Origin: a candidate division WOR-3 bacterium
GTDB taxonomy: Bacteria; Hydrothermota; Hydrothermia; LBFQ01; DSFT01
Reading direction: 5' to 3'
NCBI GenBank assembly: GCA_965649115.1
Contig: CBFGJN010000018.1
Coordinates: forward strand, 1 to 29,865
Length of the DNA: 29,865 nt
Every line of letters begins with the position of its first letter. The stretch's first letter is position 1. Positions 4,855 through 27,260 of this stretch are shown piece after piece. Under the pieces are notes generated by a model. The model was not told the origin of the DNA. It saw nothing but the letters and a program-made list of their open reading frames with translations, and did no database searches. The translations under genes and the position numbers were made by a program.

Positions 4855-4890
4855 AGTTTTAAATTTTAGAGGATAAAAATCTTTTTTGTG

Positions 4891-5098
4891 TGGTGTGTCT
4901 AAGAATTCCTGAAAATATAATTATTTCCATATTTTGCCCACCTACCCTAAAATCAAGCCTTCGGCTTTAAAAAAACCCCATCTTATGCCTTGGGGGGCAG
5001 AGCCCCCCATTAAAACCCCCCATAAAAACTATAATTTTCTTAAAATTTTTATAAGTCCTTGATAATCAATAACTTAACACTAATTATTGGACAAAGCA
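4891..5098 (+). mobile_element. MITE full copy (208 bp)
   Basis: Imperfect TIR TGGTGTGTCTAAGAA / TTATTGGACAAAGCA; flanks TTTTTTGTG (4882-4890) and TTTGTTGTG (5099-5107); hairpins at 4955-4967 and 4992-5008. Confidence 0.85.
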
Positions 5099-5107
5099 TT
5101 TGTTGTG

Positions 5108-5312
5108 TGGTGTGTCTAGTAAATAGTTTTAAGTGCTTGATAGTCAATAATTTATTAAAAATTCATTAAAATGCTTGAAATAATGGGGGGAATTTAAGGG
5201 GGGCGAAGCCCCCCATAGCAAAAGAGGGGGTATTTATAAGCCGTAGGCTTATTTTTAGGGTGGGTGGGGAAAATAAGAAAAATAAATGATTTTAGAATTA
5301 CTAGACACAGCA
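5108..5312 (-). mobile_element. MITE full copy (205 bp), opposite orientation, abutting the previous copy across the 9-bp repeat
   Basis: TIRs TGGTGTGTCTAGTAA / TTACTAGACACAGCA; hairpins at 5198-5214 and 5238-5250. Confidence 0.85.
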
Positions 5313-5325
5313 TAAAAAATCCGTT

Positions 5326-5721
5326 TTAATAAAACAAACGAACTCTTCTTGCCATTTTTAAGTATTTTTTAATATATTTCATATCTTCAATTATTACGCC
5401 TTTTTTTGAGGCGGAATGAATTATTTTATTATCTCCAATATAAATTCCTACATGGTCATAAGGACTATTAAAACTAAATATAAGTATATCTCCTGGCTTT
5501 ATGCTGTCAATTTGAACAAAATCTCCAAAATCTGAATAATTTTTTGAAATTCTAGGAGCTTTTATTCCAAACTCACTTAAAACTTTATAAACAAATCCCG
5601 AACAATCCATACCGTTATCATCCATTCCCCCAAATTTATATTTTATTCCAATGTACTTAAAACTTACATAATAAAAAGGATGAAGTGTATCTATGCTTAT
5701 TACTGAAAAGAAAATTATCAT
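5326..5721 (-). CDS. NlpC/P60 (C40) cell-wall peptidase
   Basis: YKFGG, DCSGFV, PGDILIF, HVGIYIG, IHSAS motifs. Confidence 0.92.
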   Translation of the reverse strand: MIIFFSVISIDTLHPFYYVSFKYIGIKYKFGGMDDNGMDCSGFVYKVLSEFGIKAPRISKNYSDFGDFVQIDSIKPGDILIFSFNSPYDHVGIYIGDNKIIHSASKKGVIIEDMKYIKKYLKMARRVRLFY

Positions 5722-7682
5722 TTTATAACTACTTTTCTTATTTCTTTCTTACCTCCATTTTCTATAAATTCAAAAATATAAATTCCTCTTTTCAAAAATA
5801 ATTTATCATTTTCTTTCACTTCCATTGTCTTATAGATTGAGCCATCAAGCTTAATGATATTCAAATAACCTTTTTTCAGAAATTCAATTTCGTTTCCAAT
5901 TTGATTGAAATAATTTTCATTTATATTGACAGGTGTGATTGTTGAATCAAATATAAATCTAGCTTCATCTACAACGGGTGTTTGTTCGTTATTATTAAGT
6001 GAATTCATGATAATCATATATTGAATGAACTTAACCATTTGGGTTGAGGGTGGAATGTATGGAAATGTTGTAATGGGTCCTATCCAATTTTGATTATATA
6101 TATCATTCCAATTGGCACTATTTGTATAGCGATAGTAAAAATTAATGTTTGGAATTACTGGTTGACAATTAAGTGGGTCAAAACCCAAAACTTCAATTCT
6201 CAATAATTTCCAAGTTTCCATTTGTCCATTAATATCAACAACATTAGAAATCATAATTCCCTTATTTACATAAAGCAACTCAGTTGAGTACCAATAAAGC
6301 CCTTCTGCACCACTTGTAGTTCCTGCTCTAACTACTAAATCAGGGTCAGCATCACCATCAACATCTCCAACACCAAGTCCAAAATAGCTTCTATTTGGAA
6401 CGCCAAAAGGAGTAATTTGATTGAAATTTATATTCTGATTATCAAAAACATTTCCACTTGTATTTTCAAAAATATAAATAATTTTATCATTTGGAATATA
6501 ACTTGCCACAAATATATCTTGGTCTCCATCTGGTTCTAAATCCGAAACTACAACACCCATAGGATTATTAACATTCAATGTAATCCAACTAGTACTTGGG
6601 AAATTTCCTAATCCATCATTTCTATAAATTTTTACTCTTCCTGTTCTATCTGTTACGATAACATCCAAATCGCCATCATTATTTATATCCTTTACCCATA
6701 ATGCATAAAAATTAGCTGAATTATTATTTTCAATTGTTATTTTTGTAAATGTAGGAGGATTTCCACCATTATTTCTAAACCACATAACTTCCCTTTGAGT
6801 AGTTGCTATGATATCTTTTCTTCCATCATTATTTATATCAGCAATCCAAACATCCCAAGCACTTCCTGTTCCTCCTGAATATATTAAGTATTTATTATAT
6901 CTATGGTTTTTTCCATCTATATTATTACAACCAAAACCACTATTTGAATTATTTGGTAGTTTTTCAAACCAATAAACAGAACCATCACCAAGATGTGTTA
7001 CAGCAAAGTCCAAATCTCCATCGTTATCTAAGTCCCCTACTGCTATTCCTTCTGCTTCACCAGTTCCATTAGTACAATTATTTGAATTTAAATCTGCACA
7101 TATTACGCATTTTGACCAACTATTTGAATTTCCATTATTTATTAGAAGAACAACATCTTCATCATAATTGCTATGACCCACTGTAAATAAATCTATATCA
7201 CCATCATTATCAGCATCTCCTTCATCTATCTCATCTATACTTTCAATATCATTAGCAGCGGTTATTCTATTAGCTTGAGAGAAATTTCCACATCCATTAG
7301 GATTAAAATATATCCAAGCATGTTTATTACTTCCACTTTCATCTGTAACTACTAAATCTAAAAATCCATCCTTATTAACATCATAAATATCGGGGTCGTT
7401 ATCCCAACCTCCAACAGTTGGATCTAACGAATGTTCCTTAATTGTCCTAAAAACACCCCTTAATCTTAACTTACCTTGAAATAAATAGAATATATTTCCA
7501 TCATGCTTACAAAACTGATTTGAAAATGAACCATATGGTGGTGTTGTAACCAATGGACAATCATTAGAGCAAGAAAGATTTGTTGGATTTGTTTGACAAA
7601 ATGGACTTAAATTTGATTTTAAAGGCCCTCCATACCAATCAGTTTGAACTACACTTACTTGTTCAAAAATTACCCAAATCAT
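5718..7682 (-). CDS. FG-GAP/VCBS-repeat secreted protein with probable T9SS-type C-terminal sorting domain
   Basis: About seven DxxxDGxxD repeats; C-terminus ...LDGSIYKT...LKRGIYIFEF...IRKVVIK; SD GGAGG at 7690-7694. Confidence 0.8.
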   Translation of the reverse strand: MIWVIFEQVSVVQTDWYGGPLKSNLSPFCQTNPTNLSCSNDCPLVTTPPYGSFSNQFCKHDGNIFYLFQGKLRLRGVFRTIKEHSLDPTVGGWDNDPDIYDVNKDGFLDLVVTDESGSNKHAWIYFNPNGCGNFSQANRITAANDIESIDEIDEGDADNDGDIDLFTVGHSNYDEDVVLLINNGNSNSWSKCVICADLNSNNCTNGTGEAEGIAVGDLDNDGDLDFAVTHLGDGSVYWFEKLPNNSNSGFGCNNIDGKNHRYNKYLIYSGGTGSAWDVWIADINNDGRKDIIATTQREVMWFRNNGGNPPTFTKITIENNNSANFYALWVKDINNDGDLDVIVTDRTGRVKIYRNDGLGNFPSTSWITLNVNNPMGVVVSDLEPDGDQDIFVASYIPNDKIIYIFENTSGNVFDNQNINFNQITPFGVPNRSYFGLGVGDVDGDADPDLVVRAGTTSGAEGLYWYSTELLYVNKGIMISNVVDINGQMETWKLLRIEVLGFDPLNCQPVIPNINFYYRYTNSANWNDIYNQNWIGPITTFPYIPPSTQMVKFIQYMIIMNSLNNNEQTPVVDEARFIFDSTITPVNINENYFNQIGNEIEFLKKGYLNIIKLDGSIYKTMEVKENDKLFLKRGIYIFEFIENGGKKEIRKVVIK

Positions 7683-7706
7683 ATTTTCACCTCCTTAATA
7701 AGGTAA

Positions 7707-26013: not shown

Positions 26014-26443
26014 GTTTTAAAAGGATTTTTTTAATTTCAATTGAAGGTGTGTAACCTCCAATTCCGAATTTTGAAATTACTCTATGACAAGGAACAAAAA
26101 CTGGAATTTCATTAAGGCTTAAAATTTTTCCAACATATCTTGGAAATTTTGAGAAATCAGAATAATATAAAAATTTTCCAAAAGGAATTTTAATAGTTCT
26201 TTTTAAAATTGGATTTAATGAATTGTAATTTATAAATTCAAATTGATACCAAATTTTTCTTTCAAAATAATCAATTAAGAACTTTTCTGCTTTTTTGAGT
26301 ATTTGGCAATCACTTTCTATATAGTGAAAATTTACTTTTTCATAATTTAAAAAAATTAATTTTTTTAAAAAAATTCCATCAGATAAAATTAAAACATCTC
26401 CTATTGGTAAGTTATAAACAACTTTTCCTCTTATAAAATTCAC
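25991..26443 (-). CDS. ogt: Methylated-DNA-[protein]-cysteine S-methyltransferase
   Basis: IPFGKFLYY, PCHRVI active site, GGY...KKILLKHEG. Confidence 0.85.
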   Translation of the reverse strand: MNFIRGKVVYNLPIGDVLILSDGIFLKKLIFLNYEKVNFHYIESDCQILKKAEKFLIDYFERKIWYQFEFINYNSLNPILKRTIKIPFGKFLYYSDFSKFPRYVGKILSLNEIPVFVPCHRVISKFGIGGYTPSIEIKKILLKHEGIISF

Positions 26444-26708
26444 TTAATTTTTCTTCGTTTATATTTAGTTTTTGAATGATTTCAAAGTCGGATGGTTCAA
26501 TCAAATAAGAGCCATCTTCGAAAAACACTACTGGAATTTTATATTTACCAGCAGTTTTAATAACTAAATCTCTTGCTTTATTATCTTTCCCACTATCAAC
26601 CCATTCATAATCAATTTTTAAAAATTCAAGTAATTCCATAACCCTTACTGTATCAGGACACCAGAGTTCTCCAAATATCCAAATTTTATTCAAAAATTTG
26701 GTAGTCAT
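26412..26708 (-). CDS. Glutaredoxin/mycoredoxin-like protein (monothiol CPDT); probable start ATG 26708
   Basis: WCPDT, IDYEWVD, IPVVFFEDGSYLIEPS. Confidence 0.7.
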   Translation of the reverse strand: MTTKFLNKIWIFGELWCPDTVRVMELLEFLKIDYEWVDSGKDNKARDLVIKTAGKYKIPVVFFEDGSYLIEPSDFEIIQKLNINEEKLSEFYKRKSCL

Positions 26709-27012
26709 CCTTAATAATAGTTCCAAGTTTTCTAATTTTACTTAGAAATTCATCTGCTTTTTTACTTCTTTTCTTAAATTCATCATATGTCCAACCAATA
26801 ACTTCTATATTTGGAAATAATGAACTTATTGAAAAAATATAAGCTTGTCTTTTTTCCATATTTGTTGAAAATTCCTCTGAGATTATAAGTAAATTAGCTT
26901 CATCATCATCTGAGCCTGCTTTATATAAAACAGCAGTGTACTTTTTTAATCTTAAAAGTTCCAAAAGTTTCTTTGCATCTTGCAAAATCTCTTCGAAGGT
27001 ATTTTTAATCAT
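26686..27012 (-). CDS. Hypothetical protein with a degenerate minimal nucleotidyltransferase (MNT)-like fold; probable start ATG 27012
   Basis: NLLIISEEF and IEVIGWTYDEF resemble MNT; canonical GS/DxD arrangement absent. Confidence 0.5.
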   Translation of the reverse strand: MIKNTFEEILQDAKKLLELLRLKKYTAVLYKAGSDDDEANLLIISEEFSTNMEKRQAYIFSISSLFPNIEVIGWTYDEFKKRSKKADEFLSKIRKLGTIIKDDYQIFE

Positions 27013-27047
27013 AGTGAAAATTTTAAAGCACAAAAAATTAAGGTAGT

Positions 27048-27226
27048 TGCTTTGTCTAGTAATTCTAAAAATATAATTATTTCTATACTTCTCCCACCCA
27101 CCCTGAATATAAGCCTTCGGCTTAAACTTCGCCCCCCTTAAATTCCCCCATTATTTCAAGAATTTTAATGAATTTTTAATAAGTTATTGACTATCAAGCA
27201 CTTAACATTATTTATTGGACAAAGCA
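27048..27226 (+). mobile_element. MITE copy (179 bp, internal deletion)
   Basis: Perfect TSD TAAGGTAGT (27039-27047, 27227-27235); TIRs TGCTTTGTCTAGTAA / TTATTGGACAAAGCA. Confidence 0.9.
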
Positions 27227-27235
27227 TAAGGTAGT

Positions 27236-27260
27236 TGCCTTGTCTAATAATTGTGAAAAT
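27236..27260 (+). mobile_element. MITE L-end remnant, gene-distal to the 27048 copy
   Basis: TGCCTTGTCTAATAATTGTGAAAAT immediately after the TSD. Confidence 0.65.

Follow-up and report, generated by a model that had tools for sequence, protein, structure and literature searches.

A bacterial MITE family and its IS903-type partner insert in one orientation at a fixed distance from promoter-like boxes

In the genome of a candidate division WOR-3 bacterium, a small insertion sequence (IS) and its miniature non-coding copies (MITEs) land the same way round, 22 bases upstream of a predicted promoter box. One of the simplest known transposases appears here to behave like a site-specific integration system.

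Results

MITE copies in the window

The window is the whole 29,865-nt stretch of contig CBFGJN010000018.1 (assembly GCA_965649115.1) that was analysed. The initial annotation had described seven MITE copies directly upstream of genes, all turning the same (L) end toward the gene, and direct reading agrees with all of these coordinates. It agrees equally with a 22-nt gap between L end and box at 60/83, 4891/4868, 10068/10045, 12570/12593 and 27048/27025, and, for the mutase gene (24008), with one box at 22 nt and a second at 15 nt. The features are:

1..60, minus strand: MITE copy truncated by the contig start (repeat families D14 and D16; under the nhmmer threshold at the contig edge)
60: L end of this copy, facing the gene that starts at 102
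83..88, plus strand: TATAAT box, 22 nt from the L end at 60; ATG at 102, 13 nt on
4863..4868, minus strand: TAAAAT box (CTCTAAAATTT) of gene 3556-4854, 22 nt from the L end at 4891
4891..5098, plus strand: full-length MITE, 183 bits; 9-nt duplication with one mismatch
5109..5312, minus strand: full-length MITE in the opposite orientation to its neighbour; L end box-less and turned to a gene 3' end, a counter-example
10040..10045, minus strand: TAAAAT box of gene 8574-10031, 22 nt from the L end at 10068
10068..10272, plus strand: full-length MITE; duplication AAAATATGG at 10059-10067 and 10273-10281
10340..10345, plus strand: box of the divergent gene, ATG 7 nt after; MITE R end 67 nt off, hence no fixed spacing on the R side
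12110..12183, minus strand: internal MITE fragment, model positions 73-145
12368..12570, minus strand: full-length MITE, 203 bits; GGGTGAAGC on both flanks
12593..12598, plus strand: TAAAAT box, 22 nt from the L end at 12570; ATG 7 nt after
15326..15377, minus strand: distal copy of a stack, older and truncated (model positions 1-52), with the 9-nt CTTTTCAAT next to it
15387..15569, minus strand: promoter-proximal MITE of that stack, with an internal deletion
15584..15589, plus strand: TAAAAT box of ispG, 14 nt from the L end; 9-nt duplication, TG and CTTTAAAATTT follow in that order
23980..23992, minus strand: two TAAAAT boxes of the mutase gene in overlapping registers, 22 and 15 nt from the L end at 24008
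24008..24210, plus strand: full-length MITE, 200 bits; AGTTAATTT on both flanks
24216..24267, plus strand: decayed distal copy of a stack (nhmmer match to model positions 41-92; L tip read at 24220)
27020..27025, minus strand: TAAAAT box (gene ending at 27033), 22 nt from the L end at 27048
27048..27226, plus strand: MITE with an internal deletion; TAAGGTAGT on both flanks
27236..27260, plus strand: L-terminus remnant of an older distal copy, found by direct reading 9 nt past the R end at 27226

Distance and orientation across the genome

A profile built from the seven window copies and run with nhmmer against the whole 1.85-Mb genome gave 694 matches, which make up 5.1% of the genome. With up to two mismatches tolerated in the CTTTAAAATTT box, and with all of the insertions counted being survivors of selection, a box lay 20-23 nt away in 183 of the 433 L ends that have 60 nt of flank (132 at 22 nt, 45 at 21, 4 at 23 and 2 at 20), whereas the same test on 301 R ends placed only 4 in this range. 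A minor class of 58 L ends had gaps of 13-16 nt (32 at 14, 13 at 15, 8 at 13 and 5 at 16), compared with 7 R ends. Of the other L ends, 114 adjoined the terminus of another element (104 at 9 nt, 9 at 8 and 1 at 7), 62 were box-less, for example that at window position 5312, and 16 had scattered gaps; the corresponding R-end counts were 137, 128 and 25. Counted from the box, and within 200 nt, there are 270 L ends facing it, with 130 at 22 nt, and 95 R ends, among which no distance occurs more than three times. The sister species G002 follows the same rule, with 12 of 17 free L ends at 21-23 nt.

Insertion in one orientation at a fixed offset, at about -35 and with the core promoter left intact, had been inferred from the window alone; the genome-wide plot of distance and orientation upholds that inference, and the start codon is spared as well. 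The 14-nt gap at ispG, set aside in the initial annotation as an exception, was measured correctly (the true L end is 15569) but is no mere exception: it belongs to a genuine minor register of 13-16 nt and is not noise.

The box as a predicted host promoter

The CTTTAAAATTT box is predicted to be the host's own -10-type promoter. Exact copies number 573 in the genome against about 20 expected, an ORF of at least 60 aa starts 3-12 nt after the hexamer at 597 sites (with peaks at 7 and 9 nt), and a box lies at most 30 nt upstream of 31 of the 45 tRNA genes. Overall it is found 6-11 nt ahead of some 600 ORF starts, and ahead of tRNA 5' ends too. Leadered genes with GGAGG likewise have the box. 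These promoters show no -35 consensus, and sigma-70-type hexamer pairs are no more frequent than chance (73 vs 71 +/- 8). The only RNA run contributed three short contigs, all within a gene.

The spacer and the box lie outside the element, as the initial annotation had argued. Since 11 of 12 orthologous sites in G001 and G004, two congeners without the MITE, still have the box, it is a target and not a part of the element, and 339 box-bearing promoters have no element end within 200 nt. Elements occupy 148 of 384 promoters with an exact box and 43 of 202 with one mismatch; of the 31 tRNAs with a box, five are listed with theirs occupied. At 74 of 342 unoccupied promoters the would-be insertion site falls in the upstream ORF, so selection shapes which sites are occupied. 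Every occupied box that was examined resembles a genuine promoter, those of tRNA and leadered genes included.

The autonomous IS

The autonomous partner of the MITE, an IS with matching ends, was found split across contig ends. It is of the IS5 family and IS903 type, and its ends are TGCTTTGTCCAAT... and TGCCTTGTCCAAT...; 10 contig ends carry the R terminus with the transposase N-terminus, and 13 carry the C-terminus with the L terminus. The IS obeys the 22-nt rule too. Among its 13 L junctions, seven lie at 22 nt and one at 21-22 nt from TAAAAT, two at 22 nt from variant boxes, and three adjoin MITE termini at 9 nt, two of these three ISs being distal to the MITE. Six pairs of IS junctions at contig ends, representing six copies, have perfect 9-nt duplications in common.

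P0001, a full-length homologue of the transposase (300 aa), is 92-96% identical to the N-terminal fragments of this genome, and its last 10-14 residues are the same as those of the C-terminal fragments. It scores 245.5 bits against NF033579 (cut-off 140) over residues 5-292, also matches PF01609 and PF13737, and is about 30% identical over 96-97% of its length to ISVa1/ISAba10-family transposases. IS903-group terminal inverted repeats are of the GGCTTTGTTG.ATAAAT type, and the R repeat, TGCTTTGTCCAATAAATA, agrees in 14 of 18 positions with that of an annotated ISAba10 copy. The initial annotation had pointed to a transposase with possible extra targeting domains; the transposase is there, and is IS903-type, but the 300 aa hold no extra targeting domain, as the IS5_2 profile spans residues 5-292.

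From 65 nt between R end and ATG, 903 nt of ORF and about 83 nt between stop codon and L end, the IS, of which the assembly has no intact copy, would be about 1.05 kb long with a single ORF. The MITE is about 205 bp, non-coding, has terminal repeats in common with the IS and is flanked by 9-bp duplications. It is probably mobilised in trans by the IS, to which its likeness extends over about 17 nt at each tip.

Duplications, stacks and choice of register

Perfect 9/9 duplications surround 93 of 213 full-length MITE copies, where about 1.4 would be expected by chance with partners shuffled; at least 8 of 9 positions match in 107, and the other 106 have no duplication. The 9-nt duplications quoted in the initial annotation are present, and their sequences are unrelated to each other. 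Several copies can be stacked within one 9-bp site. The promoter-proximal copy scores higher, and so is more intact, in 79 of 103 stacked pairs, and stacks occur at 51 of 90 box-associated copies vs 17 of 49 scored as box-less, several of which have variant boxes. An older L terminus lies upstream of most copies of class 22 (22-nt gap) that have a duplication.

The choice of register tracks local sequence. In class 14, TG directly follows the duplication at 15 of 26 sites vs 55 of 339 unoccupied promoters, and a second TTTAAA lies 8 nt downstream at 9 of 26 vs 44 of 339; at class 21/22 sites TTTRTC is enriched just upstream of the box (Mann-Whitney p = 2e-5). None of the 124 box-like sites within MITE copies (10 exact) has an insertion at 13-16 or 20-23 nt, which argues that the box alone is insufficient. 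These unused boxes fit a need for promoter activity as well as they fit unfavourable GC-rich upstream DNA.

Discussion

On balance, and with modest confidence, we consider it probable that an IS903-type IS and its MITE insert through a 9-bp staggered cut positioned from the -10-type box, with the transposase complex reading the promoter DNA itself. One 300-aa DDE transposase would make this cut, its position set from CTTTAAAATTT, so that upstream of TAAAAT the L end would join at a distance of 22 nt (sometimes 21), at about -35, and the R end at one of 13 nt, at about -26. An insertion would spare the box, the start of transcription and the start codon (mostly leaderless), since a -35 consensus is absent from these promoters, and the orientation would be fixed because the two element ends differ. 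The same 9-bp site could then be struck repeatedly, building a head-to-tail stack with the newest copy beside the promoter.

A transposase of the IS903 type might even dock on its own on promoter DNA as a pseudo-end, and so be specific for site and orientation with no accessory protein or RNA, although we think this unlikely. Strand transfer would then take place at the spot where the tip of a real end would be. The promoter sequence TTTATCC-TTTAAA does resemble positions 4-16 of the inverted repeat, and the repeat tip TGCTTT stands at the beginning of the minor register. If this were true, a minimal 300-aa transposase would give site- and orientation-specific integration alone.

A host protein may instead be the guide, with RNA polymerase/sigma at the promoter, or a different protein occupying the box, serving both as dock for the transposase and as the point from which the distance is measured, a mechanism of the kind suggested for TnGBS/ISLre2 and for Ty3 at Pol III genes; this is possible, but we give it distinctly less credence than the direct reading of DNA. 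Occupied boxes all appear to be functional promoters, including those of tRNA and leadered genes, none of the 124 box-like sequences within MITEs is used, and the available part of PMC3942029 offers a precedent among unrelated transposases (TnGBS/ISLre2). Since the occupied boxes examined are all promoter-like, DNA and RNA polymerase are confounded as guides. However, the joints at about -35 and -26 would fall inside the stretch covered by bound RNA polymerase and not at the edge of its expected footprint, the 13-16-nt register correlates with sequence features rather than a different promoter, nothing in the transposase extends beyond the IS5_2 profile, and tRNA promoters are not more occupied (5 listed among 31 with a box). 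We lean towards promoter DNA, rather than promoter-bound RNA polymerase, as the guide to insertion, and the transposase complex probably reads this DNA and not a host protein bound to it.

The link to promoters could also be mostly inherited, if rare founders at promoters were followed by capture at resident termini that resemble a promoter. We regard this as improbable, although 114 of 433 L ends adjoin another terminus, as do 3 of 13 IS L junctions, and the upstream L terminus of most duplication-bearing class-22 copies is of the kind that such capture would leave. The R repeat at register -9 reads TTTGTCCAATAAA vs the promoter consensus TTTATCCTTTAAA, and the TGCTTT of class 14 is identical to the repeat tip. 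Yet of the 10 IS L junctions that do not adjoin an element, 7-8 lie at 22 nt from a canonical box; in 79 of 103 pairs the proximal copy is better preserved, which repeated insertion on the promoter side would predict; alignment as a pseudo-end predicts a gap of 21 nt, whereas 22 nt is three times commoner; and stacks are found at 51 of 90 box copies vs 17 of 49 scored box-less, several with variant boxes. Random insertion followed by selection in a compact genome, the survivors being copies that spare genes and promoters, would agree with the 74 of 342 unoccupied promoters at which an insertion would land inside an upstream ORF, but it offers no route to a single-nucleotide peak (132 at 22 nt vs 4 at 23 and 2 at 20), nor to a strict orientation with nothing on the R side, and the same peak is seen among the IS copies, which are near-identical and hence recent; we hold it to be very improbable. 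We reject, as having practically no likelihood, a mobile promoter cassette in which box and spacer are part of the element. It would account for the same element end always standing beside the box, but a 9-nt duplication separates the two, empty orthologous sites in the congeners keep the box (11 of 12), and 339 promoters have the box and no element end nearby.

Insertion upstream of promoters is already known for TnGBS, ISLre2 and ISKra4, and what appears new here, judged from sequence, is its association with an IS903-type transposase and a MITE. According to the available part of Guerillot et al. 2014 (PMC3942029), those elements, which encode transposases of the prokaryotic Mutator-like type (p-MULT 3/4), insert upstream of sigma-A promoters, 15-17 bp before the -35 and in a single orientation; the orientation is ascribed there to asymmetry of the inverted repeats, and the mechanism is given as unknown. 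As far as that text goes, the likeness lies in a fixed distance and a single orientation upstream of housekeeping promoters. The reference point differs, being the -10 box at 22 nt here and the -35 at 15-17 bp there, so that those elements land outside the promoter and the present one at the -35 position of promoters with no -35 consensus. The transposase superfamily is also unrelated to the IS5_2 of P0001, and the 8 NCBIfam families with a match to P0001 (E <= 0.001) include no ISLre2 or ISKra4 model. With ISAba10 and ISVa1 of the IS903/IS5 family the element shares a DDE transposase of about 300 aa (NF033579 above cut-off, PF01609 and PF13737), and with the IS903 group the 9-bp duplications and the ISAba10 repeat (14/18); its predicted length is about 1.05 kb. 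The target preference of IS903 itself, in the available part of PMC2577343, is a weak symmetric WTTYA-N9-TRAAW abutting the duplication, whereas here the signal is asymmetric and 13-22 nt away. No promoter link for IS903 was found in the literature searched.

Classical bacterial MITEs such as Correia/NEMIS of Neisseria are short and non-coding, with inverted repeats and duplications, and are intergenic and often near genes. Ours are likewise short and non-coding, with terminal inverted repeats, duplications and intergenic abundance. No MITE is known to us that keeps to a strict orientation and, to the nucleotide, a set distance from promoters. The initial annotation, too, had not recognised this as described for a bacterial MITE, and the literature searched held no report of a MITE or IS5-family element with such targeting. 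In Tn7/TnsD at attTn7 and in CRISPR-associated transposons, targeting depends on dedicated proteins or on guide RNAs, and several transposition proteins take part. They resemble the present element in a fixed offset and orientation from a recognised sequence and in a harmless insertion spot, but they have a separate selector protein or guide RNA, whereas here there is room for one 300-aa ORF. Ty3 is a yeast retrotransposon whose integrase is guided by TFIIIB to RNA polymerase III start sites. Its insertion is similarly positioned by a landmark of the transcription machinery; it is, however, a eukaryotic retrotransposon integrase with TFIIIB as its protein guide, in contrast to a transposase for which a protein guide is only a candidate. 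The available part of PMC3942029 draws the Ty3 analogy for promoter-targeting elements as well. These parallels with Tn7/TnsD, CRISPR-associated transposons and Ty3, made in the initial annotation, hold for fixed offset and orientation but omit the closest one, TnGBS/ISLre2/ISKra4 (PMC3942029, as far as available). Unlike those elements, the present one has a MITE family that amplified the behaviour to several hundred copies.

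Insertion at a fixed distance and in a fixed orientation

Direct reading of the window bore out every coordinate in the initial annotation, including the 22-nt gap between the L end of the MITE and the TAAAAT-type hexamer (hereafter the box) at five loci, the boxes at 22 and 15 nt at the mutase locus and the 14-nt gap at ispG. The seven window intergenic regions and an alignment of copies define an element of ~205 bp whose terminal inverted repeats are imperfect (L end, TGCTKTGTCYAGTAA...; R end, ...TTAYTGGACAAAGCA). Its interior holds G+C-rich hairpins, and 9 nt of the flanking DNA are directly duplicated on either side. 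A profile built from the seven window copies gave 694 matches in the draft genome (1.85 Mb, 99 contigs, 27.6% G+C; the window is the whole of contig C18), of which 223 were full length; together they make up 5.1% of the genome. The duplication was perfect (9/9) at 93 of 213 full-length copies, compared with ~1 expected with shuffled partners.

When end-to-box distance and orientation were tallied genome-wide, the L ends formed a sharp peak at 22 nt and the R ends had no preferred distance. Among 433 L ends, the gap to a CTTTAAAATTT-like box was 22 nt at 132, 21 nt at 45, 23 nt at 4 and 20 nt at 2, with a minor register at 13, 14, 15 and 16 nt (8, 32, 13 and 5 L ends, respectively); a further 114 adjoined the terminus of another copy at 7-9 nt, 62 had no box and 16 were scattered. 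By comparison, the 301 R ends that served as a control included only 4 in the 20-23 nt range and 7 in the 13-16 nt range, and no distance measured from the box was shared by more than three; the two divergent promoters on the R side in the window are 67 and 96 nt away from that end. Insertion distance is keyed to the box and not to the start codon, as the gap from box to start ranges from 6 to 11 nt. The rule also holds in the sister species that carries the MITE: its full-length copies have 17 free L ends, of which seven lie at 22 nt, three at 21, two at 23 and three at 14-15 nt, and two have no box. The full-length window copy at 5109-5312, with its L end beside the 3' end of a gene, likewise lacks a box. 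These data confirm the observation made in the initial annotation and support its interpretation as promoter-anchored insertion.

The MITE itself contains a box-like sequence in 124 copies (10 exact), at model position ~140 and oriented outward through the R end (in the window, 5039-5049 and 10213-10223), which could be an outward promoter remaining from a transposase promoter region. A role for the fixed-orientation MITE as promoter insulator or terminator was considered and rejected, as the candidate MITE hairpins gave no terminator-like site; the scan returned 5 such sites compared with 5.0 +/- 2.4 in shuffles. An unexplained non-coding stretch of ~170 nt (window positions 12184-12357), in which no ORF reaches 80 aa, separates a MITE fragment from the full copy that follows.

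The box is a target and a putative host promoter

Several findings count against the alternative raised in the initial annotation, that box and spacer are parts of the element. The 9-nt duplication sits between the element and the box. The MITE was not found in two congeners, G001 and G004, and at 11 of the 12 sites there that are orthologous to the window's seven promoters the box is retained immediately before the same start codon; the twelfth belongs to a gene within an operon, without a promoter. Within the genome of the window, 339 promoters have a box but lie more than 200 nt from any element end, and the MITE occupies roughly one in three recognisable promoters. The would-be insertion point falls inside an upstream ORF at 74 of 342 unoccupied promoter sites. 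That the element is a mobile promoter, or that selection alone produced the arrangement, we consider very improbable even when the two are taken together.

There are 573 occurrences of CTTTAAAATTT in the genome, compared with ~20 expected. At 597 box sites (at most one mismatch) TAAAAT is followed 3-12 nt later by the start of an ORF of 60 aa or longer, most often at 7 and 9 nt, too close for a ribosome-binding site to fit between. The box also precedes genes that have a GGAGG leader, at variable distance, and 31 of 45 tRNA genes, at 30 nt or less. No -35 consensus was found upstream of the box, and canonical -35/-10 pairs occur at chance level. From these sequence patterns we read the box as the probable -10 region of the housekeeping promoter, serving chiefly leaderless mRNAs. 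The sole metatranscriptome run examined gave three short contigs, all within the gene at 13417-14718, with its promoter uncovered.

The housekeeping promoter seems to consist of a -10-only box, CTTTAAAATTT, 6-11 nt before the start codon (in the window, 12590-12607, 24304-24322 and, on the minus strand, 8545-8555), so that the first genes of operons would mostly be leaderless. The distance from box to gene start is 7-11 nt for 16 of the 45 tRNA genes and 14-16 nt for 13 others (for example, on contigs C2, C6, C19 and C82), and their primary transcripts would therefore carry almost no 5' leader. At one locus of the congener G004 (contig C1, ~100070-100100), a perfectly palindromic box, GCTTTAAAATTTTAAAGC, is flanked on both sides, at a distance of 8-9 nt, by divergent start codons and looks like a single bidirectional leaderless promoter.

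An autonomous IS with the same rule

The autonomous IS anticipated in the initial annotation was recovered at contig ends, with matching termini and the same 22-nt rule. PF01609 matched nothing in the genome of the window or in four congeners (among 31 genomes searched), and nor did PF13737; the NCBIfam model NF033579 (IS5_2) matched at two contig ends of the former, the only model to detect an IS that is broken at contig ends. The fragments led to P0001, a 300-aa homologue in a public collection that is 92% identical across the fragment and whose score on NF033579 is 245.5 bits, above the cut-off of 140. The model covers residues 5-292 of 300, PF01609 and PF13737 are both present, and there is no additional domain; the initial annotation had proposed to look for targeting domains.

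With P0001 as the query, 10 contig ends were found to stop in the transposase N-terminus and 13 in its last 10-14 residues, which points to at least 13 near-identical IS copies at which the assembly was interrupted. An identical 30-nt terminus is shared by all 10 R junctions. Of the 13 L junctions, seven lie exactly 22 nt from TAAAAT, one lies at 21 or 22 nt (its terminal base is ambiguous), two have the 22-nt gap to a variant hexamer and three adjoin MITE termini at 9 nt. Matching 9-nt sequences at six R/L junction pairs represent the duplications of single IS copies. The transposase gene points toward the host gene and has its own box 6-7 nt ahead of its ATG. IS and MITE share just their terminal ~17 nt; the IS would presumably mobilise the MITE in trans.

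The nearest annotated plasmid relatives are IS5-like transposases of the ISVa1 and ISAba10 families (~30% identity over 96-97% of the length), and the IS R repeat matches an ISAba10 repeat at 14 of 18 positions. A search of genome contigs with P0001 found no relative, and a metagenome search returned only L019-L021, at 37-45% identity. The last of these, a 37% identical IS5_2 relative on a metagenome contig, has repeats of the GGTGCTGTTGTATAA type (1-15 and ~1128-1142).

Other candidates for the autonomous element were discarded. Three ~2.84-kb intervals between repeat-like termini are mutually unrelated, 19 more (0.6-2.3 kb) hold ordinary genes between MITEs, and ORFs at the PF01609 loci of relatives matched only neighbouring genes by tblastn. 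A 720-bp three-copy repeat proved, judged by sequence, to be a methyltransferase-like paralogue family and not a transposase. Its 230-aa genes are 87-90% identical (C23:648-1340, C21:9006-9698 and C46:10367-11085); one copy is split into two ORFs, and a MITE precedes the box in two of the three.

What guides insertion

Assuming a transcription start ~7-9 nt downstream of the hexamer, insertion joins the L end near -35 and the R end near -26 of a promoter lacking a -35 element. We lean, by a small degree, towards direct reading of the promoter DNA by the transposition machinery, with the register chosen by the local DNA sequence. In the 14-nt class, TG stands right behind the duplication in 15/26 cases compared with 55/339, yielding TGCTTT, the tip of the inverted repeat, and a second TTTAAA lies 8 nt downstream in 9/26 compared with 44/339. 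In the 21/22-nt class, TTTRTC is enriched immediately upstream of the box (p = 2e-5). The promoter consensus TTTATCC-TTTAAA resembles repeat positions 4-16, TTTGTCC-AATAAA. The absence of an extra domain from the predicted protein favours direct reading, as do the joints, which fall within the stretch that a bound polymerase would cover. However, none of the 124 MITE-internal box-like sites has been used, compared with 148 of the 384 promoter boxes that are exact and 43 of the 202 that have one mismatch, and every occupied box resembles a real promoter. An alignment in which promoter DNA is read as a pseudo-end, that is, like the repeat of the element itself, predicts a gap of 21 nt and not the 22 nt observed. 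In a position-weight scan of the repeats along promoters, the best forward R-repeat registers, -9 and -2, correspond to the 21-nt and 14-nt classes, but all scores were strongly negative and the main 22-nt class was not the best register, so the scan is a lead only. Guidance by a host protein is in our judgement a possible but less probable explanation.

Adjoining copies form stacks. Very often an R end is followed by a 9-nt spacer and then by another L terminus; in the window stacks, the spacer is identical to the duplication beside the promoter. Of 103 adjacent pairs, 81 are spaced by 9 nt, 14 by 10 nt and 5 by 8 nt. In 79 of these pairs the copy nearer the promoter had the higher profile score (binomial p = 5e-8), and it was full length in 79 compared with 44 for the distal copy. 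This fits repeated strikes at the same 9-bp promoter-adjacent site. Two IS copies are located distal to a MITE, so a resident terminus may also capture insertions; as the main mode, we think end-anchored spread improbable.

Relation to known systems

To our knowledge, promoter-anchored oriented transposition in bacteria was previously known from one transposase lineage, the Mutator-like TnGBS, ISLre2 and ISKra4, and theirs is the nearest described behaviour to that of the present IS and MITE. These elements are described as inserting 15-17 bp upstream of the -35 of sigma-A promoters, always in the same orientation, which is attributed to asymmetric repeats (PMC3942029). Those transposases are unrelated to the present IS903-type enzyme. 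For IS903, a weak symmetric preference adjoining its 9-bp duplication has been described (PMC2577343). No report of promoter-anchored insertion by a MITE or an IS5-family element was found in the open-access literature searched. We interpret the present case as transposition anchored on promoters, carried out by a minimal transposase of the IS903 type and amplified by a MITE; what is new is the unrelated, simple enzyme and the single-nucleotide precision.

The system is tractable, comprising a single protein of 300 aa, a pair of 18-bp ends and a landmark of 11 bp, and it offers several hundred independent insertions, an alternative minor register and stacked hits for analysis. It could be used to study the way in which a DDE transposase gauges distance and polarity on its target DNA, and to ask if a promoter without a -35 element acts as a safe harbour.

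Gene order and the MITE

The MITE is also of interest for genome evolution, as it accounts for 5% of the genome and coincides with breaks in gene order between sister species. Half of the full-length copies (106 of 213) have no duplication, which fits recombination between MITE copies. In a comparison of the window with G001 and G004, the gene blocks between MITE-bearing intergenic regions map to different contigs or to distant places, so that gene order is broken at nearly every MITE site.
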